From positions 1-54,332 of IMG/VR virus record IMGVR_UViG_3300011115_000623: 54,332 nucleotides of DNA. The stretch is one strand, 5' to 3'. This document shows, piece by piece, positions 1 through 54,332 of the stretch. The DNA is from a virus (taxonomy: Duplodnaviria; Caudoviricetes). A program made the position numbers and the translations under genes. Each line of letters opens with the position of its first letter. Position 1 is the stretch's first letter. The notes beneath the pieces are model-generated. The model saw only the letters and a program-made list of their open reading frames with translations, ran no database searches and was not told where the DNA came from.

Positions 1-127
1 GGCAGCCTGGGGGGCTGAGTCTTAGCGGTCTGGCCTTTAGGTTCCCTGGTCGGTACTGCTTACTCGGCTGGTTCCCTTTTTGTATCCCCCTGGTCCTTCG
101 GGGCCGTCTCGTTTCCGAGCACAGCCC
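1..127. repeat. Exact 127-bp terminal direct repeat (left copy); circular-contig overlap
   Basis: 1-127 is identical to 54206-54332; 127 is a common assembler k-mer size. Confidence 0.95.
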
Positions 128-128
128 A

Positions 129-159
129 ATCATAACAAGACATAGACAGTGCCTGTCAA
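129..159 (-). promoter_or_regulatory. Sigma70-like leftward (early) promoter
   Basis: Minus strand TTGACA (154-159), 19-nt spacer, extended -10 TGtTATGAT (-10 at 129-134); points into the early arm across the circular junction. Confidence 0.6.
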
Positions 160-23800: not shown

Positions 23801-25039
23801 ATGGCCGGATTGATCTGGGCCGGTATCGGCCAGGGGATTGCCAACGCTGGCGCAACAGCGGCCAACATCGGCGTGCGTGACTACGAGATGCGCGAAGCCG
23901 CGCGCTTGCGGCGCGAAGACAAGGAAGAAGATCGCGCTTGGCGTGAAGAGCAAAAAGACATTGACCGTGATCGCCAGGATGAGCGCGACAAGCTCTACCG
24001 CAAAACCGTTGAGCAGCAGATCGCTGCCGGTAAAGGCAGCGGCGGGATGAAGGGTGTCGACCCGGCGGACATTGCGCCAGGTGGTAGATTGGCCCACCTT
24101 ATTGCGGGTGAGGCGGGCATGACCGCACCCGACTACGAAAAGCAAATTAACGCCATGAAGACCGGCGATATGTCGGGTTATGAAACTATCGTTGGCGCTA
24201 GAGCTGGCGAAGAAGGCCCAACCCCAATCAAAGCCTTACCCGAAGGATTCAAAAAAGAATTTGATGCAAAAGCCAAGATGCTTAGCCAGTTGGCCATGAC
24301 CTACGTGACGGGCAGCGAGGCAAAGGGCATCGCTGAAGCAAAGCAAATCGGTTTGGTCACCAACGCCATGGAAGGTGCTCAAGCAGGCGGCGATGTCACA
24401 AAAGCAGCTCAGCTTGCCGCAATCAGCAAGGGACATGTTCCATACGCAGGCGACTCCAACGTGACGCGCAACGTGTTGACTGGAGACACATCAACCACCG
24501 CCGTGGGCACCGCGACGATTAGCGAGAAAGGCGCTTTGGCAAAACAAGCCGAAGCAGGCGCAACGGAAAACGCAGCGCAAGCTAAAGCCGCCGACGCCCT
24601 GGCTGACAAGCACAAAGAAGAAATCACCAAGATCAGAGAAGACGTCAAGAAAATCCAAGCCGAAATTCCTGAAGTTAACGCGAGAACGAAAAAGATTCAA
24701 GCTGAAACTGGCCAGGTTGGGAAAGACGGCGGCAACGACAAAACGCAAGAGCGCCTTAGCACAGTCATCAATTCTGCGAATGCGACTTTGAAATCGCTTG
24801 AAGATAACGGCCCTGGAAAAACGCCCGAGTCCAAAGCACTCTGGGAACGCCAACGCGCTGATGCCATCGCCTTGCGTGATCAAGCAATCAGTTTGCAAAA
24901 GGAAGCCCTGGGCGCTCGCGGTACGCCACCGGCAGCGGATACGAGCGGACGTAAAGTGGGCGATACTCAAATTGTCCAAGCTGGACCAAACAAAGGCAAG
25001 ACCGCTGTTTGGGATGGCAAAGGCTGGAAGCTCCAATAA
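23801..25039 (+). CDS. Probable ejection protein (charged coiled coil, C-terminal WDGKGW)
   Basis: AAGGAG RBS; composition and position. Confidence 0.75.
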   Translation: MAGLIWAGIGQGIANAGATAANIGVRDYEMREAARLRREDKEEDRAWREEQKDIDRDRQDERDKLYRKTVEQQIAAGKGSGGMKGVDPADIAPGGRLAHLIAGEAGMTAPDYEKQINAMKTGDMSGYETIVGARAGEEGPTPIKALPEGFKKEFDAKAKMLSQLAMTYVTGSEAKGIAEAKQIGLVTNAMEGAQAGGDVTKAAQLAAISKGHVPYAGDSNVTRNVLTGDTSTTAVGTATISEKGALAKQAEAGATENAAQAKAADALADKHKEEITKIREDVKKIQAEIPEVNARTKKIQAETGQVGKDGGNDKTQERLSTVINSANATLKSLEDNGPGKTPESKALWERQRADAIALRDQAISLQKEALGARGTPPAADTSGRKVGDTQIVQAGPNKGKTAVWDGKGWKLQ

Positions 25040-25041
25040 CT

Positions 25042-28000: not shown

Positions 28001-31000
28001 ACAAGGAAGAGCTGGACGCGATCCAGGACCCGGCTCAGCGCGAAGCCCGCATCAGCCAGATGCTGACCGAGCAGAAGACCCGTTCGGAAATGACGGCCGA
28101 CTTCATGGGCAACCGCGCCACGGACAAGCGTTTCCTGGCCAGCCTGGCCAAGGCAGACCCCAAGGGGTTTGGCGACTTCGTGAAGAAGTGGATTGGCATT
28201 CTGGATGGAATGATCGCGCGCCTACGTGGCGTTCGCAGCCGGTCCAACCTGGAATCGGTCAAGGTTGACAGCTACATCAAAGACTTAAACCGGGCTAAAA
28301 TGGTTGCGCGTGACGCCATGGTAGCCTATCGCAAAGGCACGCTTCAACAGCTTGCGCCCACAACCACGCCCCCGGCGATGAGCCTGCGGCAAGGAGAACG
28401 AAATGCTATCAGCACCGGAAATCAAAACGTACCAGGCGCTCCAGCGACAACTGGACGAGTCACTGGCGAAGATGGGGGCGGTCCGACCCCAGCCTACGGA
28501 ACAGCCCGCCCGGGCGCAATTTCCGTCGTCGGACGCCACTACTCAACGTCCCCCCGTCAATCGTTAAGCGGAGCGTTTTATGGCCAAGGACTCAAAGGCG
28601 CAGAGCGTGATCGCCTGGACCGTAGCACTGATCCTCGACTTAAAAACCGCATCTACTTCTATGTTGACCAGGGCGCAGGTGTTCGCCCCGAATCCGGCGT
28701 CGGCGGGTACGCCCACGAAACCCGGCTGGACAACATCTACGATCCACAGACTCGAATCGTAAAACCGCAGGCGGATTTCAACGCCTTCGAGTCAGCAGTC
28801 ATCAACGCCGGTTTCGACGGCTACATCGCACCTTTTGGCAACAACCAGGCAGCAGTCGTCCTGCTTGGCCAAAAGCACAAAGCTGTTCCAGTCAAGGCCA
28901 TAGGCCAGCCCGCACCGGCAGCACCTGTCGAAAGCGCAGCTCCAAGCGTACTCAAGAAGGGGCTCATGTCGAAAGAGCTGAGCCAGATCGACACGTCCAA
29001 CATCCCGGGTGCGCGCCTGCGCGCGGGCAGCCTGGAGATTCCAGCAGAGCAACGCGACGCAGCCAACGCGGAGCTGGAGCGGATCGGTAGCGAAGTGCGC
29101 TTTGCCAAGAAGGAAAAGGTCACCCCGGCGCGAGTGATGTTTGAGGTTGCGCCAGACCCCAATGACGCTGCTTTGAAAGCCCGCTGGGACGCCGTGCCTT
29201 TTGAGCGCAAGGTGGAAATTAGCCAAAGCGTTGCCAAGCAAATCATGCCCCAGGTCTTTAAGCTGGCCGAGGTACGCGCCAGGCTTACCACGCAGCTTGG
29301 CGGTTATCTCGAAGACACCAGCCCGTCTTTTGCGGCTATCGTGCCCAGCACGGCGTCAGCCCAGCAGCTCATGGAGATAGCGCGCATTGGCGGTTTTGGC
29401 CTAACCCAAGACAGCATGATGGTGCTGGATTCCAAACCCTTTGAGGGCTCATCCCCAACCGGCTTGATCACAATCACGTTGCCGGAAAACATGAAAGACC
29501 AAGACGCAGTTCATTCGGTTTATCAAGCTGCGCGGCAGGTTTCTCCGAAAGACATCACCGGCCACACAACTGTTGGCCGGGAAATGGTTTTGGCTGTGCC
29601 GTCTGATAAGATGGCCGACCTCACTTCAAAAATTGTGGGCGTGTTAGACGCGCGCCCGGAAAATTTCAACATTGATTCAGCGAACGGCCACATGGCCTTT
29701 GTGTCCAAAGAGGAGTACGGCTATGGTAGTGAAGCAAGGAAACCAACCCCCGAGTTTTCTGCAAAACGGGCAGAAGCTAATCGCATCCGCGAAGAAGCCA
29801 GCGCCGCACTCGAACGCGAAATCGCAACCTACGAAGGCACCGGCGGGCGCAAAATAGACACAGGCGTTTATCGCAACGTCGCTGACTCTTTCGGGTTATC
29901 CCAGGCTGAATACGAAGCCAGTGTTCTGCCCCTTATGTTGGGCGGCGTAAAGGACAAAACTTTCCGCGCTCCCAATATTGGCGAAATCCCCGAGATCGTG
30001 CAATGGCTGGATCAGCGCCGGGCCGATACCGGCCTGCCCAAGCTGGACATCAACAAGCCCGAAGACCGCACAACCCTGGCCAAGCTGATGGCGTCCGAAG
30101 CAGTGGCCGCAATTCGTAGCGCGGGCAACGCGGTTGAGTGGTACGACGAAACCGTGGCCAAGACTTTGCGCATCATGGCTGTCAAGTACCCAGAGCTGGA
30201 CACAGACCCGAACGCACGAAACGCTTTCTTGATTGCCGTAGCCATATCGTCTCAAACAATGGACGTTGAGGCCAACCTGAAATACGCTTCTGAGCAATAC
30301 GAACAGTTCCGCACAACAGGCAAATTCCCAGAGGTTGGCAAAGGCAAGTCAGCCCCGCCAATGGCCAAGAATTTTGCTTTGGCCAATGACGTGTTGGCTG
30401 ATATGGGGCCGGACTTACTGCTTCGCTTTTTACGAAGCGAATTTACCAAACGTGAGCTGGAAACTATTGGCTTCCCTATTGGTGGCGAGTCGATGGACGA
30501 AAAGGTGCTTGGCTCTGCCATCTTCGGCCCCAAAATTGGGTTTGGTTTTTACAGCAACCTTTCGGGCAACTTTGAGCCCATTACCATGGACATGTGGTTC
30601 ATGCGCACTGTCGGCCGTCTGGCCGGGACTTTGCCAGCGTTTGACCCCGTGCTGTTCCCCAAGCAAGTGGCCAAGCTGCGTGCGGCTTTGGCCGAGACTG
30701 GAGATGCGGGGCGTGGGGTGTACGCCGATCAGTTTGACCCGGCTGCCGTCCAGGCTGCGATGGAGACGGACGAAGGCGCAATCGCCCTGGCGCGCCAGGT
30801 AAACAGCTTGCACAACCGCCAGTTCATCAAGGAACGGGCCGCATTCGACTCAGGAACGCGAATCAAGACCGCCCTGGTGGGTGCTTCCGGTAGCATCATT
30901 AAATCGGCTGACAAGCCCACAGATGCCCCTGGCAGCGGCGGCGAACGCCAGCGGCTGCGCGACGTGGTTCGCCAGATGGTTGCCATGGTGGAGGAGCAGG

Positions 31001-31482
31001 TGGGCAAGCGCGTGCCACCGGCGGCTTTGCAAGCCTTGATCTGGTATCCTGAACAAGAGTTGTATAAAAAGTTGGGCGCTGGCCTTCGCGTGACTAGCCA
31101 AGACTACGCGGGTGCGGCAGAATCACTACTTACGAAAGAAGGTTTTGATGGAAAACAATTACGCACAGCAGCCGAATCTGGACCAGGACCGGCACGACAA
31201 GTGGCTGGAAAGCCGGTCGCGCGAGCAGATCAGCAGGCTGGCCAAGCGGGCAGGCCAACTGGCGCGCTCCAAGGAGCAGAGCGGGAAACTTTCATCGCCG
31301 CCCGCACTCCCCTCGAAACAATCTTCGACGGACTAAACAAACGCGGCCTGGCCAAGACACGCGCAGAAGCTGCGATTGAATTGCGCCCGGACGGCGCGCA
31401 AATAAAATACGTCCACGAAAACTTCCTCGACATACTGTCCGAGCTGGATGACTCCGGCCTGGTTAAGATTAACTGCAAATAA
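25042..31482 (+). CDS. Giant polyvalent virion protein 1: zincin-like HExxH, ART-like, unknown and HhH-glycosylase-like domains
   Basis: About 2146 aa; HESFH...EMTAD (27847 onward); HYS...IYFY...GFDGY (about 28520-28900); WY...SSQ...N...GPKIG.FY.NL...TMD.WFMR...LQALIW (about 30060-31110). Confidence 0.8.
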   Translation: MAAYLSDDEVFGGSTYLSDAEVFGGRKDVTPFKVSIGDQAARDQESLGILQREREKAQRLAADAQKSGNQADAVRYANDQAALDREIAARAKTAGVEAPAPAAVVAPARSTLTLPTRPGQEQSGVVAPEPSVLAPQGKAPRMTTGTAALKSNEYVPVAATIRGEPAPPLIERRGAPVSEERFRELQRAYDAATPAQRVALIQRPGFEGSVFKSIDDQYRAMEKAAVTTPSARLLDTRREARRVKLAVESGMDVDAADALAAQQALQGRPTTRLAQATASDFDFETKNEFARPSTQVDMRQKGGIIYRAKPSNADELAAAAKAIGGKVKGQFESAAAGAWQMVGDLISATGDFVGSPGTERFGDRLSAGNAQQQKQAQARLAAIGDNPNAALNFVESGVSGAITNIVPLFVAGPALGVSAMVGQVVADEYGAGKAAGLSGPEALARGSALGFAELVGELASLPTPLVKGFKQLVKGVPTEQILPEFARYLVKENAAEQVTSSLNFATDKWAPFGIKPNSTLADYLQAAADTFYQTTAQTLVMGAAGKLAAPVARAINTPERQFANAFQADVDARQANADAIDYLARWEMSANKDKFAGNVAKMEKAARDYETQILTPLARAMEASRAFDVEYENQLRAARDQADLQQASTASDAATAADNLSGSLSEMLEPALTGEAIPGEVLPPEPGLTGAEMSAAADQVEPAFTGAAVPGEVLGTEPPLFAPAPVVTPAVETAGINPDLEQRMGFDKLRLNAPRPQTIQGTPVASLSDDQLQTMAGDESIAPISRRSAAIELTARQAEPGAFTQRAAPQATGAPSTVSYAGEALDTSRTTFGLGDAQGRVSDAPVTGAGATARAELQARLDRAAAIHGVAVPTLAAPTPENEAAVSVIADALGGVGLADKVVSYTDPNGADGFELGGVIAVNTATQKGVAHSSFHESFHVAERIAAADTAAGRTNTPAQQYVASIHSLFDEMSDEGKRAYITNFLNKEELDAIQDPAQREARISQMLTEQKTRSEMTADFMGNRATDKRFLASLAKADPKGFGDFVKKWIGILDGMIARLRGVRSRSNLESVKVDSYIKDLNRAKMVARDAMVAYRKGTLQQLAPTTTPPAMSLRQGERNAISTGNQNVPGAPATTGRVTGEDGGGPTPAYGTARPGAISVVGRHYSTSPRQSLSGAFYGQGLKGAERDRLDRSTDPRLKNRIYFYVDQGAGVRPESGVGGYAHETRLDNIYDPQTRIVKPQADFNAFESAVINAGFDGYIAPFGNNQAAVVLLGQKHKAVPVKAIGQPAPAAPVESAAPSVLKKGLMSKELSQIDTSNIPGARLRAGSLEIPAEQRDAANAELERIGSEVRFAKKEKVTPARVMFEVAPDPNDAALKARWDAVPFERKVEISQSVAKQIMPQVFKLAEVRARLTTQLGGYLEDTSPSFAAIVPSTASAQQLMEIARIGGFGLTQDSMMVLDSKPFEGSSPTGLITITLPENMKDQDAVHSVYQAARQVSPKDITGHTTVGREMVLAVPSDKMADLTSKIVGVLDARPENFNIDSANGHMAFVSKEEYGYGSEARKPTPEFSAKRAEANRIREEASAALEREIATYEGTGGRKIDTGVYRNVADSFGLSQAEYEASVLPLMLGGVKDKTFRAPNIGEIPEIVQWLDQRRADTGLPKLDINKPEDRTTLAKLMASEAVAAIRSAGNAVEWYDETVAKTLRIMAVKYPELDTDPNARNAFLIAVAISSQTMDVEANLKYASEQYEQFRTTGKFPEVGKGKSAPPMAKNFALANDVLADMGPDLLLRFLRSEFTKRELETIGFPIGGESMDEKVLGSAIFGPKIGFGFYSNLSGNFEPITMDMWFMRTVGRLAGTLPAFDPVLFPKQVAKLRAALAETGDAGRGVYADQFDPAAVQAAMETDEGAIALARQVNSLHNRQFIKERAAFDSGTRIKTALVGASGSIIKSADKPTDAPGSGGERQRLRDVVRQMVAMVEEQVGKRVPPAALQALIWYPEQELYKKLGAGLRVTSQDYAGAAESLLTKEGFDGKQLRTAAESGPGPARQVAGKPVARADQQAGQAGRPTGALQGAERETFIAARTPLETIFDGLNKRGLAKTRAEAAIELRPDGAQIKYVHENFLDILSELDDSGLVKINCK
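28403..28567 (+). CDS. Nested +1-frame ORF, 54 aa (MLSAPEIKTYQALQRQLDESLAKMG...)
   Basis: AAGGAG 6 nt upstream of ATG; lies in a low-complexity linker of the host gene. Confidence 0.5.
   Translation: MLSAPEIKTYQALQRQLDESLAKMGAVRPQPTEQPARAQFPSSDATTQRPPVNR
29723..29857 (+). CDS. Nested +1-frame ORF, 44 aa (MVVKQGNQPPSFLQNGQKLIASAK...)
   Basis: GAGGAG 7 nt upstream of ATG; at a domain boundary. Confidence 0.35.
   Translation: MVVKQGNQPPSFLQNGQKLIASAKKPAPHSNAKSQPTKAPAGAK
31148..31336 (+). CDS. Nested +1-frame ORF, 62 aa (MENNYAQQPNLDQDRHDKWLESRSREQISRLAKRAGQLAR...)
   Basis: GAAGG 5 nt upstream of ATG; directly after the glycosylase-like domain; host frame here is G/A/Q/P linker. Confidence 0.5.
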   Translation: MENNYAQQPNLDQDRHDKWLESRSREQISRLAKRAGQLARSKEQSGKLSSPPALPSKQSSTD

Positions 31483-31986: not shown

Positions 31987-34900
31987 ATGGCCGATTGCAC
32001 GTATCGGTTCACCGACGCGGATGGCAAACAGCGTGTCATAAAAGGCCAAGCCGCGTTCAAAGCGTACCTGGCCAGTGGTGGCCTTCAGCACCTGATGCCC
32101 AGCGCCAAGGTGGCGTTCAGCGGCAAGCAGACCGAGACCCCGGAATTCAAGCGTTGGTTCGGCGACAGCAAAGTGGTGGACGCCGAAGGCAAACCCCTGG
32201 TGGTTTACCACGGCAGCGTTGCCCGAGGCGTGACGGTGTTTGATACTACCCGCGTTACCACCCGCAGCGCCAAGGGCGACTTGGCTGGCACCTACTTTAC
32301 AAGCAGCCCAGAAGCGGCTTACGGTTATACGCGGGACTTTGGCGCAAGCCTGCCCTTGACTGGATCGAAGGCAGGTACTAAGGCTCCAAGGGGTGACGTT
32401 ACCCAGGCTTACCTCAAGATTGAGAACCCGCTCAACACCACCGCCGCAATCAAAAAATATCGCAAGCAGGGCCTGTCGTTTGGGGACGCCAAGCGCAAGG
32501 CCCTTGAGGCCCTCACGCCTGAGCATGACGGCGTCATCTTTGACGGCGACAAACTAAACCCACCCGAGTACGTGGTGTTCAAGCCCACCCAGATCAAATC
32601 CGCCACCGACAACAACGGCCAGTTCGACGCGACCAACCCGGACATCCGGTTCAGCCCCAGGCAAGACCTCAAGCCGGAAGACGTGCTCAAGCCGGAAACC
32701 GTCATTAAGGCCCGAGAGGCCATTGCCAAGTACAAGAAAGCCGAGCCGCCTGACCCGTTGTCAGCGGCGGATCGCGCGCACGGCGAAGACCTGCTGAAGC
32801 CTTTGTTCGCAGCGGCAGAGCGCAACAAGCCCGCGTTCGACACGACCCTGGACAAGATCGCCGAAAGCGTCGGCGGCTACGCCAAGAAGCCTGGTATCAA
32901 GAAGCCGTTCCGCGCAGTCACCAAGCTGGCCATCGAGAACGGTTACGACCCGGCCACCATGAAAGACCTGTTGCGAGGCACTGTCGTGGTGGAGACGCCG
33001 GAAGACGCGCAGCGGGTGATTGACGAGATCGGCAAGGTCTACAAGTTCGACCGGATCAAGAACCGACTGTCGATTGACCTGACCGACAACAAGGGCGAGA
33101 CCCTACAAGGCAAGCCGTTGTCGACCGGGTACCAAGACGTGCTGACCAACGTGGTGTTGGATGACGGGACTGTTGCCGAAATTCAGATCAGCACGCCAGG
33201 GATGCTGGCTGCTAAGAACCTTGGCCATGAGATTTACGCGTTTGAGCGCGAGATGCCACCCAGCCCGGTCAAGGCCAAGATGGTCGACATCCAGAAGCAG
33301 ATTTACGCCGAAGGCGCAAACTTTGGCCGGGCAACGCAGGCGTCAAACACGCGCTTGAATTCAGCTCTGTCGACCGGGTCGGCTTTCTCACGCACGTCCG
33401 AAGGGTTGCGCGGGGAGGGAGCCGGTAGCCAGGCGGTGGCCGAACGCCAATCTGGCGAGACCGTCACAGGCACTTCGTTCCAGTCGAAGAACATGGTGCC
33501 GGGGGCTAAGGAATCAAAATCGAATTTCATTGGAACCTCCGGCCTGATTATACCTGAAAGCATTGGTATCAACGTCAACCAAGACGGAAAAAACCAGTAC
33601 GCTGACAAGATCGTTGACGGAGAAAAGACACTCGAAACCAGGACGTCGGACTCGCTTCGCCCATACGTCGGCAAGCGGGTCGCCATTGTGCGTACTGGGG
33701 ACGGCCCGGCCAAAGCCATTGGCGCGGTGACGATTGGCGAGCCGATCAAGGTGACGACGCAAAAGCAGTTTGACCAATACCGCGACCAGACCCTGATCCC
33801 CAAGGATTCCAAGTTCGACATCGCGCCTGGCCAGATCAAGTACATGTACCCCTTGGAGAACCCGGTCCGGTACTCTGACGAAAGAGACGTCGGCCAGGGA
33901 ATCGTTGCGCGCAAAGTGATGCTGCCTAGCCGAGCTGGCCAGAAGAACGCAGCGGCCAGCCGGGTGGAGGGCACAAGCGCCGACCGATTCAAACGCACTG
34001 AGCAGCTCCAGCAAGCCGTGGCGGACCTGCAAGAGGGCAAGATCACCAGGACCGAATACAACCGCATGGTGGACGAATTGCGTCCAGTGCAGCCCTATGC
34101 TGCGGTGCCTGCCGTTACGACGCCCAAAGACGCGCGCTATGCCCTGGAGCATGGCCGGGGGCAGAGCCCGGAGAAGGCAGCCAAGTATGGCGTGCCATCC
34201 ATGACTTTGAAGAAAGGCGACTGGGCACAGCTTCGCCTGGACATTCCTTCGTACCAGGAGCACGATGCCTGGGTCGTCAGCGTCCATACGCCGAAGTCAA
34301 CCAACCGCGAAGTGCAGTCTGCATACGACGCTGGCCCGGTGGTGGGGTATGAGTCGGTGGCCGCTCTCACAGACGTGACCTTTGGCATGAACCAGAAGGC
34401 CGCAGCCAAGATCGCTACGGGGTCCGCCAAGGGCACGATTGCCACCATGCTGGGTAAGTGGTCACCCATCAGCAAAGAAGCCGCCAAAGCCCGCGCTGAC
34501 GCCGCGCTGAACGATCCAGCCTGGACCCAGGTCGGCATGGACCCATTCCGCCACAGCTACTTCTACGACCGCGACACCATGCGCCCCGTGCTCAGCGCGG
34601 ACGAAGTGATCCAGGTCGGCCCCCTGGTGCTGGCCAAGAACGTCAAGTTCGGTCTGGACACAGACATCACCGGCGCGCCCATCGCGTTCAGCCAACGCCA
34701 GCCGATGGGCAAAGAGACCGAGGGCTGGCTGCTCAGCCGCGACGCCACCGGCCGCTTCCGCTTCGGCGCGGGTGCCAAGGCTTACCGATACGTGGCAGAC
34801 GTGGCCAACGACGTGCTCGACCGCATAGCCATGAAGCCGGTCAGCCAAGACCTCAAGCGGGCGATGCGCAAGATGCGCATGGAGATCGACAAGGCCCAGA

Positions 34901-37113
34901 ACCTGACAGTCGAAGTGGCCAAGAACATGAAGGACCTGCCAGAGCAGGAGCGCGAGATGGTCAGCGATGTGATCGAAGCCGAGCTGAAGCGCGGTGCCAA
35001 ACCGCCCAAGCGCGTGCTGGAGATCGCGGCCACCATGCAGTCGATCATGTCCGAGCAATCGGCGGAACTGGTGCGCCTGGGCATGCTGACGCCAGAAGCC
35101 GCTGGCCGCTGGGACGGCAAGTACCTGCCTCGCTTCTACGAAAAGACTTTGGGCGATGAGACCAAAGCCTGGATGAAAGCGGTCAAGGGTTTGCTTGGTC
35201 GCAAGAAAACCATGCAGGGTATCGGCGGCAGCAGCCTCAAGGCGCGCGGCATGTTCGAGAGCGTGCCCGTTGCAGACCTGGCTGACTGGGAAGCAAACGG
35301 TTGGGAAGTGCGAGACGACGCATTCGATCCAGCGGTCGATGACCAGATCACGGTCTGGCGCGACTACACGCGCACAGAGCGCGATGACATGGGCGAGATT
35401 CGTGACTCGATGTTCCGCTTCGTTATGGGGTACAACAAGAGCCAACGCGACATCGCACTGGGCCGGTTGTACGAAAACCTGGCCAGCAACTACGCAAGCC
35501 GAATCGAGAAGGAGGGCTACGTGCAAGTGCCATCCACAAACGTGGAAGACACGTATGCCAAGCGTTACGGCAAGCTGGCGGGCAAGTGGGTGCCTAAAGA
35601 AATTCTGGATCAACTGGTGGCGTTCGACACAAGCATGCAGAACGATCTGCTGAAGATGTACCTGAAGGGTCTGTCGATGTGGAAAGAGGGCAAGACCGTC
35701 CTCAACCCAGTCGCTCACGCAAACAACGTGATGTCGAACATCACGATGGCTCACTTCGCTGGCGTGTCTTACTGGGACGGCCACAAGTACGTGGGCGCGA
35801 TCAAAGACCTGGTCAAGAAAGACGCCATGGTGACTGAAGCCCAGGACGCGGGTTTGTTCAGCGGCACGTTCAACCACGCCGAACTGATGGACGCCATGCC
35901 CGAGCAATTGCGCGCGCTGGCCCAGATGTCAGAGAGCAAGGCCAAGAAGGCAGTCGACATGATCTGGAACGCGATGTCTTTGTGGTTGCGCAAACCCCTG
36001 GGCAAAGCATACGCTGCCGAGGATGACTTCTTCCGATACATGATTTACCGCGATGCGCGCAACAAGGGTCTAAGCCCGGACGACGCTGTCGACTACGCGC
36101 TCCAGTACATGTTCTCTTACGACGACATGCCAAAGGGCGCACGGATTATTCGGGACGTGCCCATCGGTTTGCCTTTCTTTGCGTACACGTATAACGTCGT
36201 GCCCGCCCTGGCCAAAACCGCACTGGAGCAGCCGTGGCGTTATGCCGCCCCAGCGGTGGCTTTGTACACAATCAACGCGGCTATGTACGCAATGGCTGCC
36301 AGCCTGGGTGGCGGTGATGACGAAGACTGGTGGACCGTGATCCAGCGTTACCTGACCGACCCGGAATTCCGGGACCGGGCCAAGAAGATGGAAGAGCAGG
36401 AGCGCAAGAACTTGCCGCCTTGGCAAAAGGGCGAGAGCTTGATGCTGGGCACCGAGAAGACGATCCGCCTGGGTATGGACGACATGACCAACCTGCCCGT
36501 GTTCCTGGACGTCAGCCGGATATTCCCAGGCGGCGACATCTTCGACGCACACAACAATGCAGGCGGCATGCCGATCATTGCTCCGCTCATGCCCAACAGC
36601 CCGATCCTCACAACCATCGCGGCGATTGCGTACAACGAAGACACGTTCCGTGGACGGGACATCACCGACAAGACGGACACCAGCGCGGAAGCTGCCGCAA
36701 AACGAGCAGCGTTTATGTGGCGTCAGATGACACCGGCAATTGCCATCGGCAACACTCACTTTGAGCGCGCCATGAACGTGATCGCCAACGTCACGGGCGA
36801 GGTCGTCAAGACGCCCCTGGCCGACTACACCGGCATTGGCAAAGACGGCGTGCCGATCATGCCCGGCTACGCTGCTATGCAGACGGTCGGTATCAAGGCC
36901 CGACCAATCGACCTGGCTGCATCGGAGAAGTTTGCAAAGGCCGAGCAAAAGCGCATGGTGACCGAGGTCAACATTAAGATGAGCAGTTTGCGCAAGCAGC
37001 GCAACAAGGGCTCAATCAGCGACGAGACCGCCGAGGCCGAACTGGAAAAGCTGCGCGAGAAGAAGCGCAACCTCAAGCAAGGTCTGACCCTGGAAGGCGA
37101 AGAGAAAGACTAG
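31987..37113 (+). CDS. Giant polyvalent virion protein 2: ART-PolyVal + RelA/SpoT-like synthetase + ASCH + unknown + LPD38-like C-terminus
   Basis: FKRWFGDSKVVD..GKPLVVYHG...YFT...DGVI...YVVF.PTQIKSA; IKK..R...K...KDLLRG...GYQD....EIQI...K..GH.IY; YADKIVDGEKTLETR. Confidence 0.85.
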   Translation: MADCTYRFTDADGKQRVIKGQAAFKAYLASGGLQHLMPSAKVAFSGKQTETPEFKRWFGDSKVVDAEGKPLVVYHGSVARGVTVFDTTRVTTRSAKGDLAGTYFTSSPEAAYGYTRDFGASLPLTGSKAGTKAPRGDVTQAYLKIENPLNTTAAIKKYRKQGLSFGDAKRKALEALTPEHDGVIFDGDKLNPPEYVVFKPTQIKSATDNNGQFDATNPDIRFSPRQDLKPEDVLKPETVIKAREAIAKYKKAEPPDPLSAADRAHGEDLLKPLFAAAERNKPAFDTTLDKIAESVGGYAKKPGIKKPFRAVTKLAIENGYDPATMKDLLRGTVVVETPEDAQRVIDEIGKVYKFDRIKNRLSIDLTDNKGETLQGKPLSTGYQDVLTNVVLDDGTVAEIQISTPGMLAAKNLGHEIYAFEREMPPSPVKAKMVDIQKQIYAEGANFGRATQASNTRLNSALSTGSAFSRTSEGLRGEGAGSQAVAERQSGETVTGTSFQSKNMVPGAKESKSNFIGTSGLIIPESIGINVNQDGKNQYADKIVDGEKTLETRTSDSLRPYVGKRVAIVRTGDGPAKAIGAVTIGEPIKVTTQKQFDQYRDQTLIPKDSKFDIAPGQIKYMYPLENPVRYSDERDVGQGIVARKVMLPSRAGQKNAAASRVEGTSADRFKRTEQLQQAVADLQEGKITRTEYNRMVDELRPVQPYAAVPAVTTPKDARYALEHGRGQSPEKAAKYGVPSMTLKKGDWAQLRLDIPSYQEHDAWVVSVHTPKSTNREVQSAYDAGPVVGYESVAALTDVTFGMNQKAAAKIATGSAKGTIATMLGKWSPISKEAAKARADAALNDPAWTQVGMDPFRHSYFYDRDTMRPVLSADEVIQVGPLVLAKNVKFGLDTDITGAPIAFSQRQPMGKETEGWLLSRDATGRFRFGAGAKAYRYVADVANDVLDRIAMKPVSQDLKRAMRKMRMEIDKAQNLTVEVAKNMKDLPEQEREMVSDVIEAELKRGAKPPKRVLEIAATMQSIMSEQSAELVRLGMLTPEAAGRWDGKYLPRFYEKTLGDETKAWMKAVKGLLGRKKTMQGIGGSSLKARGMFESVPVADLADWEANGWEVRDDAFDPAVDDQITVWRDYTRTERDDMGEIRDSMFRFVMGYNKSQRDIALGRLYENLASNYASRIEKEGYVQVPSTNVEDTYAKRYGKLAGKWVPKEILDQLVAFDTSMQNDLLKMYLKGLSMWKEGKTVLNPVAHANNVMSNITMAHFAGVSYWDGHKYVGAIKDLVKKDAMVTEAQDAGLFSGTFNHAELMDAMPEQLRALAQMSESKAKKAVDMIWNAMSLWLRKPLGKAYAAEDDFFRYMIYRDARNKGLSPDDAVDYALQYMFSYDDMPKGARIIRDVPIGLPFFAYTYNVVPALAKTALEQPWRYAAPAVALYTINAAMYAMAASLGGGDDEDWWTVIQRYLTDPEFRDRAKKMEEQERKNLPPWQKGESLMLGTEKTIRLGMDDMTNLPVFLDVSRIFPGGDIFDAHNNAGGMPIIAPLMPNSPILTTIAAIAYNEDTFRGRDITDKTDTSAEAAAKRAAFMWRQMTPAIAIGNTHFERAMNVIANVTGEVVKTPLADYTGIGKDGVPIMPGYAAMQTVGIKARPIDLAASEKFAKAEQKRMVTEVNIKMSSLRKQRNKGSISDETAEAELEKLREKKRNLKQGLTLEGEEKD
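33303..33530 (-). CDS. Nested antisense gene, 75 aa (MKFDFDSLAPGTMFFDWNEVPVTVSPDW...); candidate immunity protein for the RelA/SpoT-like domain
   Basis: GGAGG 5 nt before ATG; perfect TATAAT 6 nt further upstream; occupies exactly the linker between the synthetase and ASCH domains. Confidence 0.7.
   Translation of the reverse strand: MKFDFDSLAPGTMFFDWNEVPVTVSPDWRSATAWLPAPSPRNPSDVREKADPVDRAEFKRVFDACVARPKFAPSA
33536..33578 (-). promoter_or_regulatory. Internal antisense promoter/RBS for the nested gene
   Basis: TATAAT (33547-33552), GGAGG (33536-33540); candidate -35 boxes TTGATA and TTGACG are at non-ideal 14- and 20-nt spacing. Confidence 0.5.
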
Positions 37114-50284: not shown

Positions 50285-50721
50285 AAGAACGAATCGTGAG
50301 CGCGCAAACGTCCAGCAACCTGGGCGAGTCTTTGGTCAACGACCTGGGCGACATCGACGTGGTCAGGGCATGCGGCATGGCCGGTCAGACCAACCCCCTG
50401 GGGCTGTCGATCTGGCGATGGCGTTATGCGGGTGATGAGCGTGAGCTGTGGAAGGTGGCCGATGGCCTGGTGGCGCGAGGGCGTCCTGCCCTGCTTGTGA
50501 TGCGCGTTCTCCATCACCTGGCAGACGACGTGTGCAAAGTCTGCTTCGGGCGCGGATACGGCGTGATTGAAGACACCCCGGTCCTGAACGGTAAGCAATG
50601 CACCGAGTGCCGGGGTGAGGGTCGACTGATGATTCAGGGCGAGGCTGAGCAAGCCCTGGTCGAGGAGATCGCGGCACTGGAGCGCGAAGTAGCCGGGAAC
50701 ATCATGCGAAAGCTCGCATAA
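50281..50721 (+). CDS. Zinc-finger protein, antiterminator Q-like
   Basis: CKVCFGRG...CTECRGEG; last gene of the rightward replication operon. Confidence 0.6.
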   Translation: MKERIVSAQTSSNLGESLVNDLGDIDVVRACGMAGQTNPLGLSIWRWRYAGDERELWKVADGLVARGRPALLVMRVLHHLADDVCKVCFGRGYGVIEDTPVLNGKQCTECRGEGRLMIQGEAEQALVEEIAALEREVAGNIMRKLA

Positions 50722-51061
50722 CCTGGCCGCACGAAGGGCAGATGTCTTTGCCATCGCGTCTCTTCAGAGCCCGGTGAACGGCTGATTGATTGACGCCCAC
50801 CTGCTTGGATGCAGCGTAGACGGTCAGCCCTTCATCGGATACCAGATCGAGTGCCTGCATGGTCCGGGATTTTGGAATCTTGGACCAGATGGCGACGACG
50901 TTGTCCGGCATCTCATCAGGCTTTTCGGTGTAGGCCGAGCAGGCCAGGCTGCCGTTTTCTTTGGTGTACGCAACCAGGTAGGCCGCGTCCTGGGCGGCGA
51001 TCTCGATTGCGCGGCGTGTGTTTGCTGATGGGAACAGGGCGAGGAATTCGTCGATTGTCAT
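50702..51061 (-). CDS. HTH + C-terminal CxxC protein
   Basis: GGAG RBS; GLTVYAASKQVGVNQSAVHRAL; ICPSCGQ. Confidence 0.75.
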   Translation of the reverse strand: MTIDEFLALFPSANTRRAIEIAAQDAAYLVAYTKENGSLACSAYTEKPDEMPDNVVAIWSKIPKSRTMQALDLVSDEGLTVYAASKQVGVNQSAVHRALKRRDGKDICPSCGQVMRAFA

Positions 51062-51285
51062 TTTTGATTCTCCAAAATGGAAGCGGCCTCGCGTGCGAGT
51101 GCGGCTTGCCTGGTTAAACGCGAAGCAGTCACCTGCTGATCTGTCGCCCACTCGCGCAGTGATTCAGCAGCGGACTTGCCAGGGTAGAGGCGGACGTCGA
51201 GCGACACGTTGTCGGTAGTGATGCATGCATAGGCTGCCTGCGCGCCAACGAATGTGCGGACTTTCACGGCGTCACCTTTGGGCAT
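51058..51285 (-). CDS. Hypothetical early protein
   Basis: Coupled to downstream gene; start may be the GTG at 51267. Confidence 0.65.
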   Translation of the reverse strand: MPKGDAVKVRTFVGAQAAYACITTDNVSLDVRLYPGKSAAESLREWATDQQVTASRLTRQAALAREAASILENQK

Positions 51286-51494
51286 TTTTCAAACAGCTCA
51301 ACTAACCTGGGGTCGTTGATTTCCGTCCATCCGTCGGGCCTATACCAAACCCCGTCCAACTCATGCGCGACTTGTCGGCCCCACATGGCGGGCCATTCGT
51401 GAGACCCCGGTATGTCTTCGCGGGGCAAATGTTGCGGTTGCACCGAATACACGGCGCGGTTGCCGCTGGGTAAAGTGACCAGCATGTTGATCAT
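51264..51494 (-). CDS. Hypothetical early protein
   Basis: GGAGG RBS before ATG at 51494. Confidence 0.65.
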   Translation of the reverse strand: MINMLVTLPSGNRAVYSVQPQHLPREDIPGSHEWPAMWGRQVAHELDGVWYRPDGWTEINDPRLVELFEKCPKVTP

Positions 51495-51561
51495 AAAAGC
51501 CTCCAAAAAAGATAGATGACCGCGTACATGTACGCGACGCGAAAGATGAATGCAGCCATAG

Positions 51562-51678
51562 TTAAAACGGTGCGGGCGGACCGACTGGGGTTGATGGTCG
51601 TGGTCGGTACTCTTTGATTACGGGCGGCAAGCACTTGTTTGGTAGCGTGCGGGGGAACGGCCAGATAGCTTTTTTCAT
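51562..51678 (-). CDS. 38-aa Pro-rich peptide (MKKAIWPFPRTLP...PPAPF)
   Basis: Translated by hand; GGAGG RBS; ATGA overlap. Confidence 0.55.
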   Translation of the reverse strand: MKKAIWPFPRTLPNKCLPPVIKEYRPRPSTPVGPPAPF

Positions 51679-51980
51679 ACCGCCTCCATGTAGCTGGCCC
51701 ACTCTTCGCCAACGGCGTCGACGACATATTTGCGGCTGCCTTTGGTGCCGCTTTTGACTTCGTCGCGTGATGGGATGCGGTTGCCGTAGTAGTCACGCGC
51801 CGGGCTCTTGCCGAGCATGCAGTAGCCGCCTTCGATGGCGGACATCAGGGTGCGGCCGTAGCTGCCCTGGAAAGCCCAGGCGCTGCCGCTGTTGATCGCA
51901 ACCTGGATGCTGCGGAAGTAGTCAATCTCGGACACTTCGTCATCCGATTCGATGTTGTTGATGTCGTTCAAGGTAAGCAT
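51675..51980 (-). CDS. Hypothetical early protein (Q..IN.G.AW.FQGSYGR....I..GYC)
   Basis: GGAG RBS directly after repeat copy A. Confidence 0.8.
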   Translation of the reverse strand: MLTLNDINNIESDDEVSEIDYFRSIQVAINSGSAWAFQGSYGRTLMSAIEGGYCMLGKSPARDYYGNRIPSRDEVKSGTKGSRKYVVDAVGEEWASYMEAV

Positions 51981-51990
51981 GTTTATCTCC

Positions 51991-52065
51991 AAAAAACCAA
52001 GCAGTTATCGGTCGCCTGGATACACCGCCTAAACCTGGCACGCCAGGCTTAGGGGCCGAAGCCCC
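51991..52065 (-). repeat. Early-region structured element, copy A
   Basis: UUCG hairpin + 11-bp CGUG-loop hairpin + invariant CGGTGTATCCAGGCGACCGA + U-run + RBS. Confidence 0.9.
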
Positions 52066-52070
52066 ACCGC

Positions 52071-53027
52071 TTACGCGGCCAACAACTCAAGGGTGCGAGC
52101 CTTGAGAGCAGCGCCGGTGCCCCACTGTGCAGCAACGAACCGGTTCTGGTCGTTGTGAGCGCGGACGTGGTGGTCAGCGTATTCGGTCACCGCGTTGAGA
52201 AAGCCCCAACGTGTGCCAAAAACACCGTCCATCATTGCGCCCATGCCGTCGCCGTTGAACAACGACATGACTTTCTTGAACCCGGCGGTCTCGCGCACTT
52301 TCTCACCACCACCAAACACCTGGACTGCAACGTCAGCGGCCTGCTCTTCGTGCATCTCGATGTTGGCCAAGCGGGTGACCGTGGCGCGGAACGCGTCCCA
52401 GGCAGCGGTGTTGAGTCCCATGAACTCTTTCACCGAAACCGGGTCGAACACCGAGCGGTGCGACACTTTGACCGAAGCTGGCGCGTCGGCCATGGCCATC
52501 TGCAAGGTGTTTTTGCACACGGTGCGGACAGTGGTGCGGCGCACTTCAGTGGCCAGCGACCCGTCAGCACTGGAGCTGATCAGGATGTAGCCGCCGATGG
52601 TGTCGCGCACCGACACGGGAGCGGCTTCGCCGATCTTGGCAGTTGCCCAGAAGCGTTTGCCGTCGTAGATCGTGCCTGCTGCTGACAGCTCCAGGCCACC
52701 GGCCCGGGCGATGTCGCGGAAAAACTCGATCACTTGGCCGGGCTGCACGACCTGGTACTTGTTGGACACGACGCCCAGGGGCTTCTTCGTATCCGAGCGG
52801 AACAGAACGTGCTGGCTGGGCAGATCGATCTGGTCGCCGTAGACGCTGGTGTTGTAGCGCACGACCCCGCGCTTGATCTTCCAATCCATCCCGGCAGCGG
52901 CGCGCCAGGCGTCCAGGTCGGTGCCGTCTTCCAGGGCCTGGCCAAGGCCGTGCCAGGGAGTACCGTCGCTTGCCAGGTAAGCAAATTCGACGCGGCCGTC
53001 AGCGTGGGTTGTGAGTTCGTGAGACAT
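52071..53027 (-). CDS. DUF932 family phage/plasmid protein
   Basis: TPWHGLG, AGMDW, LGVVS.KY.VVQ, RTVCKNTL, NAVTEY.DH. Confidence 0.9.
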   Translation of the reverse strand: MSHELTTHADGRVEFAYLASDGTPWHGLGQALEDGTDLDAWRAAAGMDWKIKRGVVRYNTSVYGDQIDLPSQHVLFRSDTKKPLGVVSNKYQVVQPGQVIEFFRDIARAGGLELSAAGTIYDGKRFWATAKIGEAAPVSVRDTIGGYILISSSADGSLATEVRRTTVRTVCKNTLQMAMADAPASVKVSHRSVFDPVSVKEFMGLNTAAWDAFRATVTRLANIEMHEEQAADVAVQVFGGGEKVRETAGFKKVMSLFNGDGMGAMMDGVFGTRWGFLNAVTEYADHHVRAHNDQNRFVAAQWGTGAALKARTLELLAA

Positions 53028-53042
53028 GATTTATTCCTTTGC

Positions 53043-53121
53043 AAAAAACCAAGCTGTTATCGGTCGCCTGGATACACCGCCAATGCCGAGCACGCCGGGC
53101 ATTGGAAGGGGCCGAAGCCCC
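53043..53121 (-). repeat. Early-region structured element, copy B
   Basis: Same architecture and invariant 20-nt core. Confidence 0.9.
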
Positions 53122-53127
53122 GGGGGC

Positions 53128-53277
53128 TCACGCCCGGTTTGTTTGATTTACAGCAGCTTGAGCGTCTTTTTTACCCATGCGGCCAAAGAAGTGCCAAGGC
53201 TGCCCATGGCAAACGGCTACCCAACCGGGCGTGGGCCGCCCGTAGTATTTGCTGGCCTTTACCAGATAAGCGTTCAT
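53128..53277 (-). CDS. 49-aa hypothetical protein (MNAYLVKASKYYGRPTPGW...)
   Basis: Translated by hand; GGAG RBS; ATGA overlap; stop directly before copy B. Confidence 0.6.
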   Translation of the reverse strand: MNAYLVKASKYYGRPTPGWVAVCHGQPWHFFGRMGKKDAQAAVNQTNRA

Positions 53278-53462
53278 GCTACTGACTCCAGGTTAAGTTT
53301 ATTGACCAGTTCGACTTCGTAGCCCAGCTTGGCGATCAGAGCCAAGACCTGGCTGGTAAGAGTCGCAGTGCCTGCGATGCGAGCAAACAGCTTGGCTTGT
53401 TCGCACACGGGGTAGGCTTTAGGCACCCCGTAAACCTCGCGGATGTTGACGATGATTTTCAT
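53274..53462 (-). CDS. Small conserved phage protein (VYG...YPVCEQAKLFARIAGT.TLT)
   Basis: AAGGA RBS; coupled. Confidence 0.8.
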   Translation of the reverse strand: MKIIVNIREVYGVPKAYPVCEQAKLFARIAGTATLTSQVLALIAKLGYEVELVNKLNLESVA

Positions 53463-53755
53463 GCTGACTTCCTTGCAGAGATGCGAACCACAGCGTAGGA
53501 ATCACCCTGGCTGCTGTGGGCTTTGATCAACTGGCGCGATGGCTTGAAGTGCATCGCAATCGATTGCCAGTCGATGCTGACCTTGCCGTCAGGCTGGCTG
53601 ATGGCGGCTCGGTAGAACAGGCCGTCGACCACCGACTCGCCGGACTCGACCAGCTCTAACCGCAAAGCGGCTTCCTCTTTCTTCAGGTCGGCAATCTGAG
53701 CTTTGACCTGGGCCATACGGTCGACGACGCGACCAAGGATGTTTTCAACTTGCAT
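53459..53755 (-). CDS. Hypothetical early protein (coiled coil + IDW motif)
   Basis: GGAG RBS directly after copy C. Confidence 0.8.
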   Translation of the reverse strand: MQVENILGRVVDRMAQVKAQIADLKKEEAALRLELVESGESVVDGLFYRAAISQPDGKVSIDWQSIAMHFKPSRQLIKAHSSQGDSYAVVRISARKSA

Positions 53756-53765
53756 GCTTTTCTCC

Positions 53766-53844
53766 AAAAAACCAGGCCGTTGTCGGTCGCCTGGATACAC
53801 CGCCAATGCCGAGCACGCCGGGCATTGGAAGGGGCCGAAGCCCC
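53766..53844 (-). repeat. Early-region structured element, copy C
   Basis: Same architecture and invariant 20-nt core. Confidence 0.9.
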
Positions 53845-53849
53845 GACCA

Positions 53850-54116
53850 TCACGCTACTTCGCAGGTCACTTCCGCGACGTCCATGATGTTGGCCAACCG
53901 ACCGTTGGCGTTGATCGAGTATTCGATCTGTTCCAGCGTCGGCTTGTAACTGCCGCTGTAATCGGCCCACTGGCCACACTTGCGTGTGCCCTCGAACCAC
54001 ACCAGGTAGATGGCGTTGCCTCGCGGCACGCCCTGCACCGTGTACACCTGGGCATCAGGGTGCTCACCGCGCACCACCAACAGGCCAGGGCGAATGTCAG
54101 CTTTTTTGTACTGCAT
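53850..54116 (-). CDS. Hypothetical early protein (first gene of the early transcript)
   Basis: GGAG RBS directly after copy D. Confidence 0.75.
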   Translation of the reverse strand: MQYKKADIRPGLLVVRGEHPDAQVYTVQGVPRGNAIYLVWFEGTRKCGQWADYSGSYKPTLEQIEYSINANGRLANIMDVAEVTCEVA

Positions 54117-54126
54117 AACCTTCTCC

Positions 54127-54189
54127 AAAAGACCAGGCAGTTATCGGTCGCCTGGATACACCGTCAAAGGACAGCACGCTGCCCTTTGA
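54127..54189 (-). repeat. Early-region structured element, copy D
   Basis: Invariant core; hairpin stem has a different sequence but the same length and loop; no UUCG hairpin. Confidence 0.9.
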
Positions 54190-54205
54190 TCCTTCCTTCG
54201 CACTC

Positions 54206-54332
54206 GGCAGCCTGGGGGGCTGAGTCTTAGCGGTCTGGCCTTTAGGTTCCCTGGTCGGTACTGCTTACTCGGCTGGTTCCCTTTTTGTATCCCCCTGGTC
54301 CTTCGGGGCCGTCTCGTTTCCGAGCACAGCCC
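54206..54332. repeat. Exact 127-bp terminal direct repeat (right copy)
   Basis: Identical to 1-127. Confidence 0.95.

Follow-up and report, generated by a model that had tools for sequence, protein, structure and literature searches.

Structure of the element in the window

The window analyzed here is a complete virus record of 54,332 bp (IMG/VR record IMGVR_UViG_3300011115_000623, Caudoviricetes), whose gene content points to an uncultured phage that has a P22-like terminase and lacks close relatives among named phages. The last 2.3 kb of the window hold four copies (A to D) of a composite element, all on the minus strand, with one copy before each successive gene cassette of the early region (Table 1). 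Each copy consists, in this order, of an 11-bp hairpin with a CGUG loop (HP2), an H-type pseudoknot built from stems S1 and S2 and loops L1 to L3, a run of U residues (U-run), a Shine-Dalgarno (SD) sequence, and an ATG. Copies A to C are preceded by a further hairpin, HP1 (GGGGC-UUCG-GCCCC), which lies 5 to 6 nt past the upstream stop codon, has a predicted folding energy of -9.6 kcal/mol, and carries no U-tract. HP1 is present after every upstream stop codon and missing from first copies, which have no gene upstream of them. Neighboring copies are separated by 361 to 1052 nt with open reading frames (ORFs) in between, and they are not arranged in tandem.

The 24-mer core CGGTGTATCCAGGCGACCGAYAAC occurs four times in the window, always on the minus strand, and did not occur in any of 100 shuffled sequences. 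Read as RNA, the invariant core is CGGUGUAUCCAGGCGACCGAYAAC, followed by GCYUGG, while HP2 is present in three different stem sequences among the four copies. When a covariance model of the element was run with filters off over the whole 54,332-bp genome, it recovered solely these four copies (E = 3e-24 to 9e-23); the next-best match, at E = 0.04, is the reverse strand of HP2. An earlier sequence-only reading of the window, made from the letters and a list of ORFs, had described four minus-strand copies at these positions, the sequences of their stems with the CGUG loop, a single mismatch in copies B and C, the G-U pairs, and the GGGGC-UUCG-GCCCC hairpin after the stop codons upstream of A to C. 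All of these were confirmed on the sequence, and the covariance-model search that the same reading had proposed found only the four copies in this genome and more of them in relatives.

Covariation of the fold in relatives

We gathered relatives of the element in three steps. An exact 19-mer scan of IMG/VR yielded 27 further copies in 11 contigs, bringing the set, with those of the window, to 31 copies, of which 26 are distinct. A model built from these 26 copies was run on 41 loci neighboring a DUF932 gene (L016 to L056) and on 5 others, which gave 81 matches with E < 1e-3, including at least one in 35 of the 41 DUF932 loci. The main alignment, made with MAFFT, contains 65 of the 66 distinct copies; the one omitted is identical to window copy D. 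A further pattern scan for distant members was read by eye and stands outside the counts. It identified distant members at L229, L220, L222, L199, L217, L228, and probably L194. Their first S2 pair reads G-C or U-A, and their HP2 differs in sequence and loop size, with a length that is not constant (about 8 to 13 bp). Pattern matches at L181, L184, L211, and L179 proved to be the same coding gene with an S2 unable to pair and were rejected as members, and those at L187 and L224 were uncertain and were not counted.

Over the 65 aligned copies, to which the following counts refer unless another set is named, 96.5% of cells in the whole structure were paired. None of 500 shuffles attained the observed percentage paired or the observed covariation score, and at most 48% of cells paired in a control in which the pairing partners were slid by 1 to 3 columns. 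HP2 showed double changes at all 11 pairs; among the 26 distinct copies of the first step, 97.6% of its cells were paired and 7 of 11 pairs had changed on both sides. For S1, 99.6% of cells were paired and 2 of 4 pairs had changed on both sides, with a first pair that is C-G in 62 copies, U-A in 2, and unpaired in 1, and a last pair that is U-A in 42, C-G in 22, and U-G in 1. The CGGU/ACCG pairing, whose loss in homologues the sequence-only reading had named as grounds for giving up its proposal, is kept by compensatory changes in this stem. For S2, 99.7% of cells were paired and 2 of 6 pairs had changed on both sides: the first pair is C-G in 53 copies and U-A in 10 (and G-C too in more distant copies), the third is A-U in 60 and G-C in 5, and the fourth is G-C in 28 and G-U in 37.

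The strands of S1 and S2 are interleaved and both helices covary, as in an H-type pseudoknot. Because the pseudoknot stems are invariant inside the window, the evidence for their pairing comes from relatives alone; the pseudoknot drawn in the sequence-only reading is borne out by covariation of both stems there, and the window copies by themselves give no evidence of it. The G-U pairs, up to three per HP2 stem, are compatible with the sense strand only, and in the DUF932-oriented loci (L016 to L056) all model matches with E < 1e-3 lie on the coding strand. Conserved by compensatory changes in all three helices, the fold is a real, selected sense-strand RNA, in agreement with the earlier view of the covarying hairpin as part of a selected RNA module.

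The dimensions of the pseudoknot are 4 bp for S1 and 6 bp for S2, with loops G-N-A-N, G, and (A)-Y-R-A-C-N, and its invariant unpaired bases are the G of L1, the G of L2, and the A-C of L3. HP1, HP2, S1, and S2 abut, with 0 to 4 nt between them. Since HP2 is always joined to S1 without a linker, HP2, S1, and S2 could stack coaxially into a single rod of ~21 bp.

Linkage to ribosome-binding sites and gene cassettes

Of 85 copies of the element, 84 lead into an SD sequence, an ATG, and an ORF of 30 codons or more; the remaining one is truncated by the end of its contig. From the end of the pseudoknot, the SD sequence is 6 to 14 nt away and the ATG 16 to 40 nt, the latter distance being 16 to 19 nt in 63 of the 84 copies (16 nt in 30, 17 nt in 7, 18 nt in 20, and 19 nt in 6) and 21 to 40 nt in the other 21. 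The 84 downstream ORFs sort into 14 families. Genomes carry 1 to 5 copies, clustered on one strand; five relatives that are 92 to 100% complete have 1 to 3 copies within 0.65 to 2.3 kb, on one strand, plus an extra weak match (E = 0.006).

The U-run is present in the clade of the window, where it is often interrupted (UUUUUU, UCUUUU, UAUUUU, or UACUUU), and absent from distant members that keep the hairpin, the pseudoknot, and a nearby SD sequence (L044, L052, L048, L047, L220, L222, L199, L217, and L228). Its loss in distant relatives suggests that termination is not the conserved role of the element. The sequence-only reading had included the U-run in the element, and on this point it describes the clade of the window and not the distant members.

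The order of the cassettes differs between relatives, with junctions at the elements, and different cassettes are found between identical elements. In public sequencing runs, contigs of relatives (the comparison covers contigs only) join at 52065-52071, 53106-53121, and 53760, all of which are element positions. Among the early proteins, searches against Pfam and PHROGs found just DUF932, a weak match to DUF7417, and a weak helix-turn-helix match. Between close relatives (loci L005 to L015), the early region at 51991-54189 is hypervariable, with different family-less small ORFs between identical elements. The three HP2 stem types have themselves changed places: past the DUF932 gene, for instance, the window has a copy with a type-1 stem and L006 one with a type-2 stem.

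Comparison with described RNA families

A comparison with Rfam had been proposed in the sequence-only reading as a check on novelty. Rfam 15 (4227 models, including riboswitches, ribozymes, ribosomal protein leaders, and ToxI) gave no match in the whole window at the gathering score and none in 51900-54332 at E <= 10 with permissive filters, so that no described family matches at either setting. Word searches of the open-access literature did not return any account of an element of this kind. The motif may already have an entry, unnamed under a number, among the 8,495 candidate structured RNAs catalogued from IMG/VR (PMC10690425). Good covariation support and the lack of an Rfam family therefore make the element a candidate new RNA family.

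The predicted early transcript and its leader

On a circular reading of the genome, copy D is preceded by a putative early promoter with a 19-nt spacer, ~210 nt before the first gene. In 8 relatives, its -35 TTGAC and TGnTAnnnT boxes keep their positions, although the DNA around them is only about 74% identical. Our promoter scan did not list this TTGACA/TATGAT site because of its 19-nt spacer, and it listed no sigma-70-like promoters inside 50500-54332. The genome has no match to an RNA_pol family, a weak negative because the control matched in no control genome, and no phage sigma factor was found in it. A conserved promoter upstream, none inside 50500-54332, and no phage polymerase or sigma factor therefore point to a single early mRNA that carries all copies; from the sequence, we infer that the host polymerase transcribes all four copies in it.

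Copy D is located in the 5' leader of this predicted early transcript. The last 127 nt of the window (54206-54332) repeat the first (1-127) as an identical overlap; the putative early promoter directly precedes this overlap, which takes in the predicted transcription start and the 5' leader. The leader is GGA-rich and includes a hairpin, CAGYC-CCCCA-GRCUG, with a C-G to U-A change. The leader, which spans 54193-54327 and repeats 1-122 (minus strand) plus the bases that follow, has no Rfam match and may have a function of its own as an RNA. One leader stretch, CCGAAGGACCAGG (~54302-54290, minus strand), is complementary to positions 54137-54125 of copy D, which comprise the 3' arm of S2, the U-run, and the first two G residues of the SD sequence. 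This pairing, of 12 to 13 pairs including G-U, is predicted in the minimum-energy and centroid folds of the window and in the consensus fold of the 8 relatives, and it shows one-sided changes only. The C that interrupts the U-run of the first copy forms a G-C pair with the leader stretch. In these predicted folds, the pairing may be an alternative structure that masks the first SD sequence.

The DNA at 129-246 is a divergent promoter region, with a rightward TTGACC-18 nt-CATAAT at 217-246. Beyond it, a G+C-rich hairpin and a U-run (286-305) directly precede the SD sequence and ATG of a small rightward gene at about 331, which makes this a second instance of a stable structure, U-run, and SD sequence in this phage.

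Table 1. Positions of the putative early promoter, the leader, and the four element copies in the window
Feature	Position	Strand	Details
Putative early promoter, circularly upstream of copy D	129..159	-	TTGACA (159-154), TG (137-136), TATGAT (134-129); position kept in 8 relatives
5' leader of early transcript	54193..54327	-	5' hairpin with compensatory changes, then ~130 nt nearly invariant in 8 relatives
Copy D, HP2	54164..54189	-	11 bp, CGUG loop, one G-U pair
Copy D, H-type pseudoknot	54133..54163	-	S1 CGGU/ACCG, L1 GUAU, S2 CCAGGC/GCCUGG, L2 G, L3 AUAACU
Copy D, U-run and start site	54114..54132	-	UCUUUU (54132-54127), SD GGAG, ATG (54116) of first early gene, 88 aa
Copy C, HP1	53831..53844	-	GGGGC-UUCG-GCCCC, 5 nt past stop TGA 53852-53850
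Copy C, HP2 and pseudoknot	53772..53828	-	HP2 53828-53803, pseudoknot 53802-53772
Copy C, U-run and start site	53753..53771	-	U6, SD GGAG, ATG (53755) of three-gene cassette
Copy B, HP1	53108..53121	-	Past stop TGA 53130-53128
Copy B, HP2 and pseudoknot	53049..53105	-	HP2 53105-53080, pseudoknot 53079-53049
Copy B, U-run and start site	53025..53048	-	U6, SD AAGGA, ATG (53027) of DUF932 gene (52071-53027)
Copy A, HP1	52052..52065	-	Past stop TAA 52073-52071; last two bases overlap HP2
Copy A, HP2 and pseudoknot	51997..52053	-	HP2 52053-52028, pseudoknot 52027-51997
Copy A, U-run and start site	51978..51996	-	U6, SD GGAG, ATG (51980) of 101-aa gene

A possible role in translation initiation

The explanation that we favor, tentatively and short of calling it probable, is that the element is a portable module of the 5' untranslated region (UTR), which would govern how translation of each early cassette begins or how its mRNA is protected, and would double as a junction for cassette exchange. 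A rigid fold stands 5' of a linker and ribosome-binding site (RBS) whatever gene follows, which argues for translation initiation and/or mRNA protection and not for the start or stop of transcription. On this explanation, the element would be a cis-acting RNA module at the 5' edge of every translational unit of the early polycistronic mRNA, with its rigid fold placed where the 30S platform and protein S1 would contact the mRNA and with a short, unstructured, usually U-rich linker next to the fold. It would most likely set translation initiation for all early cassettes, either as a context-independent docking or standby platform or as the common operator of one trans-acting factor (the ribosome or protein S1, or a phage or host RNA-binding protein) that would switch the early cassettes together. 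The element, being a stable block, would in addition protect the cassette mRNA and keep the RBS clear of upstream sequence. The identical ~100-nt unit that flanks every cassette would therefore offer homology for cassette exchange between related phages.

Several points weigh against this explanation or against the covariation beneath it. Taken singly, the copies have modest fold-energy z-scores, between -0.04 and -2.3. The cells in our counts are sequences and not events, and because copies within a lineage share variants, there are fewer independent compensatory events than the cell counts suggest. Stem S1 was fixed by the search patterns, and its covariation therefore rests on the model-based matches. 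No RNA-binding candidate or other trans factor emerged from the early proteins in the Pfam and PHROG searches. In the clade of the window, a U6 run stands directly after S2 and looks like part of an intrinsic terminator, and HP1 and HP2 could together be a processing site.

The last two points correspond to rival explanations, each of which we consider unlikely. As an intrinsic terminator or attenuator, S2 and the U-run would halt part of the polymerases before each cassette and give a graded or regulated early cascade, with the pseudoknot and HP2 tuning the efficiency. The window and its close relatives do have a 6-bp G+C-rich helix directly before UUUUUU, UCUUUU, UAUUUU, or UACUUU, the hairpin alone is predicted at -5.9 to -9.7 kcal/mol, and there is a single promoter for the whole operon; however, distant copies that retain the hairpin, pseudoknot, and SD sequence lack the U-run, the loop of 11 nt is beyond the usual 3 to 8 nt, and the terminator scan did not list the helix. 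In addition, if all four copies were efficient terminators, the genes behind them would fall silent, and termination leaves the invariant loop bases and the fixed distance to the ATG unexplained. As an RNA processing or stabilizing site, the element would be cut by an RNase (III, P, or E) between HP1 and HP2, so that the upstream mRNA keeps HP1 as 3' protection and the downstream mRNA begins with the structured end formed by HP2 and the pseudoknot. RNase III sites lie between the early genes of T7, and the position of HP1 after every upstream stop codon and its absence from first copies, its stability (-9.6 kcal/mol) without a U-tract, and the spacing of just 0 to 4 nt between HP1, HP2, S1, and S2 are all compatible with such a site. 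Yet there is no single-stranded A/U-rich RNase E site between HP1 and HP2, the length of HP2 varies in distant copies (about 8 to 13 bp), unlike that of a ruler-type RNase III substrate, and processing alone needs no conserved pseudoknot with invariant loop bases.

Three further explanations carry still less weight with us. The smallest known riboswitches have a similar layout, a compact pseudoknot beside an SD sequence or U-run, and the compact H-type pseudoknot with invariant unpaired bases in L1 (G), L2 (G), and L3 (A-C) beside an SD sequence or U-run could suggest that each early cassette senses one host metabolite or, less likely, cuts itself free as a ribozyme. We regard a new riboswitch or ribozyme of this kind as improbable: the riboswitches and ribozymes of Rfam give no match with a threshold as loose as E <= 10, 14 unrelated downstream families would be unusual for a metabolite sensor, and the SD sequence lies outside the fold, with no alternative pairing conserved. 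It is very improbable that the element acts as DNA, whether as a promoter for each cassette or merely as a recombination site. Copy D reads TTGACG-16 nt-GATAAC, and cassette order varies between relatives with junctions at the elements, which is how the cassettes of T4-type phages discussed below work (PMC2839356, PMC4122927). Against this, the -35-like hexamer, located in a variable HP2 arm, is unconserved, the -10-like hexamer has no T at its end, compensatory changes and strand-specific G-U pairs in three helices are unexpected for double-stranded DNA, and recombination alone would not maintain pairing. The promoter reading was rejected on the covariation of the RNA together with the 0 promoter-like sites that the scan found in 50500-54332.

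A put/nut-type antitermination signal or a decoy RNA of the ToxI type, both of which the sequence-only reading had considered, has in its favor the pseudoknot topology and the presence of one copy in the leader, directly after the early promoter, and is very improbable. The copies are 361 to 1052 nt apart with genes between them and are not tandem, and the decoy reading also meets no Rfam ToxI match and no ToxN match in the phage, the latter a weak negative because its control was uninformative. Antitermination of the lambda nut type calls for a boxA word beside a boxB hairpin; 20 boxA-like words were found against 25 expected, none of them inside an element (an approximate pattern was used, and no search for an N-like protein was made), and copy number is 1 to 5 per genome, with some complete relatives that have a single copy away from the promoter. 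Neither function explains the tight link to the RBS, which ties the element to the RBS and not to the promoter. Among the roles listed in that reading, a translational switch and a processing or stabilizing element are those favored by the tight coupling to the SD sequence and ATG, and antitermination and the decoy are not supported.

The favored role in translation initiation also has a bolder form, which we think unlikely to be correct as a whole. In this form, the element would be a portable initiation cassette that a single dedicated partner recognizes, be it a protein of the phage or host, the ribosome platform or protein S1, or a small ligand. One signal would switch all early accessory genes on or off, and the 13-nt complementary stretch of the near-invariant 130-nt leader could be an antagonist built into the system, working either in cis against copy D or in trans against every copy. 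If true, a dedicated partner would mean a new kind of phage post-transcriptional regulon made from a mobile RNA module.

Relation to known systems

We rate the element as belonging with the pseudoknot operators of phage 5' UTRs, its unusual part being the modular use in multiple copies. The operator of T4 gene 32, which acts on translation initiation, is an H-type pseudoknot in the 5' part of the mRNA whose stems stack coaxially; past it comes an unstructured A/U-rich tract with the RBS (PMC3014915). Here too, a pseudoknot is followed by an unstructured tract with the RBS. In T4, the pseudoknot is ~67 nt upstream of the AUG of a single gene, that of the SSB, which it serves in autoregulation; the same paper names the pseudoknot operator in the mRNA of rpsO (ribosomal protein S15) as an example (PMC3014915). 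In contrast to the gene 32 operator, the element described here has its pseudoknot 16 to 19 nt from the ATG, has an extra stacked hairpin, occurs 1 to 5 times per genome before at least 14 unrelated genes, and shows no sequence likeness to it. The Enc34-type SSB gene of this phage (42199-42723) is without the element, a further difference from T4. The rpsO pseudoknot is located at the ribosome-binding region, includes the SD sequence and AUG, is bound by the product of its own gene, and can hold or block the 30S subunit on the platform. Our element shares the location at the ribosome-binding region and differs in that the SD sequence is outside the fold and no Rfam ribosomal protein leader matches.

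The +42 mRNA of tisB in Escherichia coli has a 5' pseudoknot beside a single-stranded stretch, which is required for binding of protein S1 and for standby binding of the 30S subunit (PMC7708055). The element likewise sets a pseudoknot beside a single-stranded stretch, and by this analogy a ribosome docking platform is a plausible mode of action. The two differ in that the tisB standby site works in a toxin mRNA whose RBS is sequestered and ~100 nt away, whereas the RBS here is adjacent and looks open.

PeSL (promoter-early stem-loop) cassettes of T4-like phages consist of a sigma-70 promoter and a terminator stem-loop and lie between non-essential early genes, where they are exchange points for modular shuffling (PMC2839356, PMC4122927). 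The element resembles them as a short conserved repeat between early genes that marks cassette exchange junctions, and the 14 ORF families, shifting gene order, and joints at the elements are the behavior seen at the module junctions of PeSL-type cassettes. It differs from them in that no promoter was found in the repeat (0 sites in 50500-54332, and candidate hexamers unconserved) and in that its core is a covarying RNA pseudoknot. ToxI is also a short repeated pseudoknot RNA, of which phages can carry mimics, but its 36-nt repeats are in tandem beside toxN and are cut by ToxN (PMC3475682), while the copies described here are dispersed in 5' UTRs and the phage has no toxN match (with a weak control).

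Of the four copies in the window, copy D alone is promoter-proximal; the other copies, and the single copy of a complete relative, are not. The put RNA of HK022, by comparison, consists of two stem-loops just downstream of the early promoter that make RNA polymerase terminator-resistant. Promoters of the N4-type virion RNA polymerase combine a short DNA hairpin with a phage-encoded RNA polymerase. The element does not match an N4-type hairpin promoter: a stem of 11 bp with a 4-nt loop and the covariation of the pseudoknot do not fit it, and no RNA_pol match was found in the genome, where the control was uninformative.

What is known of structured 5'-UTR operators in phages comes mostly from single genes, T4 gene 32 among them. 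In the present case, a single conserved fold stands before many unrelated early genes and moves with them in cassette exchange. If the element does control translation, it would show post-transcriptional co-regulation of fast-evolving early genes from a single promoter, newly acquired genes would gain working expression signals at once, and a compact, context-independent element of this kind would be a useful part for synthetic biology.

Features of the phage genome

The gene content of the phage includes DUF2800, an Enc34-type SSB, PolA, a VapE-type primase, an SNF2 helicase, DUF932, and a P22-like terminase. Comparing 51000-54332 with named phages by blastn gave only four weak partial matches, and no close cultured relative was found by PolA (at most 55% identity) or TerL (at most 62%). 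In an 18-mer scan of bacterial genome contigs, we obtained at least 120 single matches in many phyla. The element model found no elements at 80 of these loci (L057 to L136), and we take the bacterial matches as chance words, for which the estimated expectation is a few hundred.

The direct terminal repeat of the record is the 127-nt overlap of the two ends. Taken with the P22-like terminase, it agrees better with headful packaging of a circularly permuted genome, or with an overlap in the assembly, than with true physical ends. Two giant ORFs on the plus strand stand among the structural genes, at 25009-31482 (2157 aa) and 31987-37113 (1708 aa). The first has no match in Pfam, PHROG, or PDB; in the Atlas, it has just leads below 0.9 to large phage proteins, including one cluster with ART-PolyVal in 43% of its members. 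Neither ORF shows a likeness to a polymerase, and both probably encode ejected internal virion proteins.

Several public runs labeled with a single organism (X6 to X14) hold 55 to 63% of the words of the region, and a close relative of the phage may be present in a cultured strain or its lysate. Two public runs labeled "RNA" that hold the region are probably DNA.

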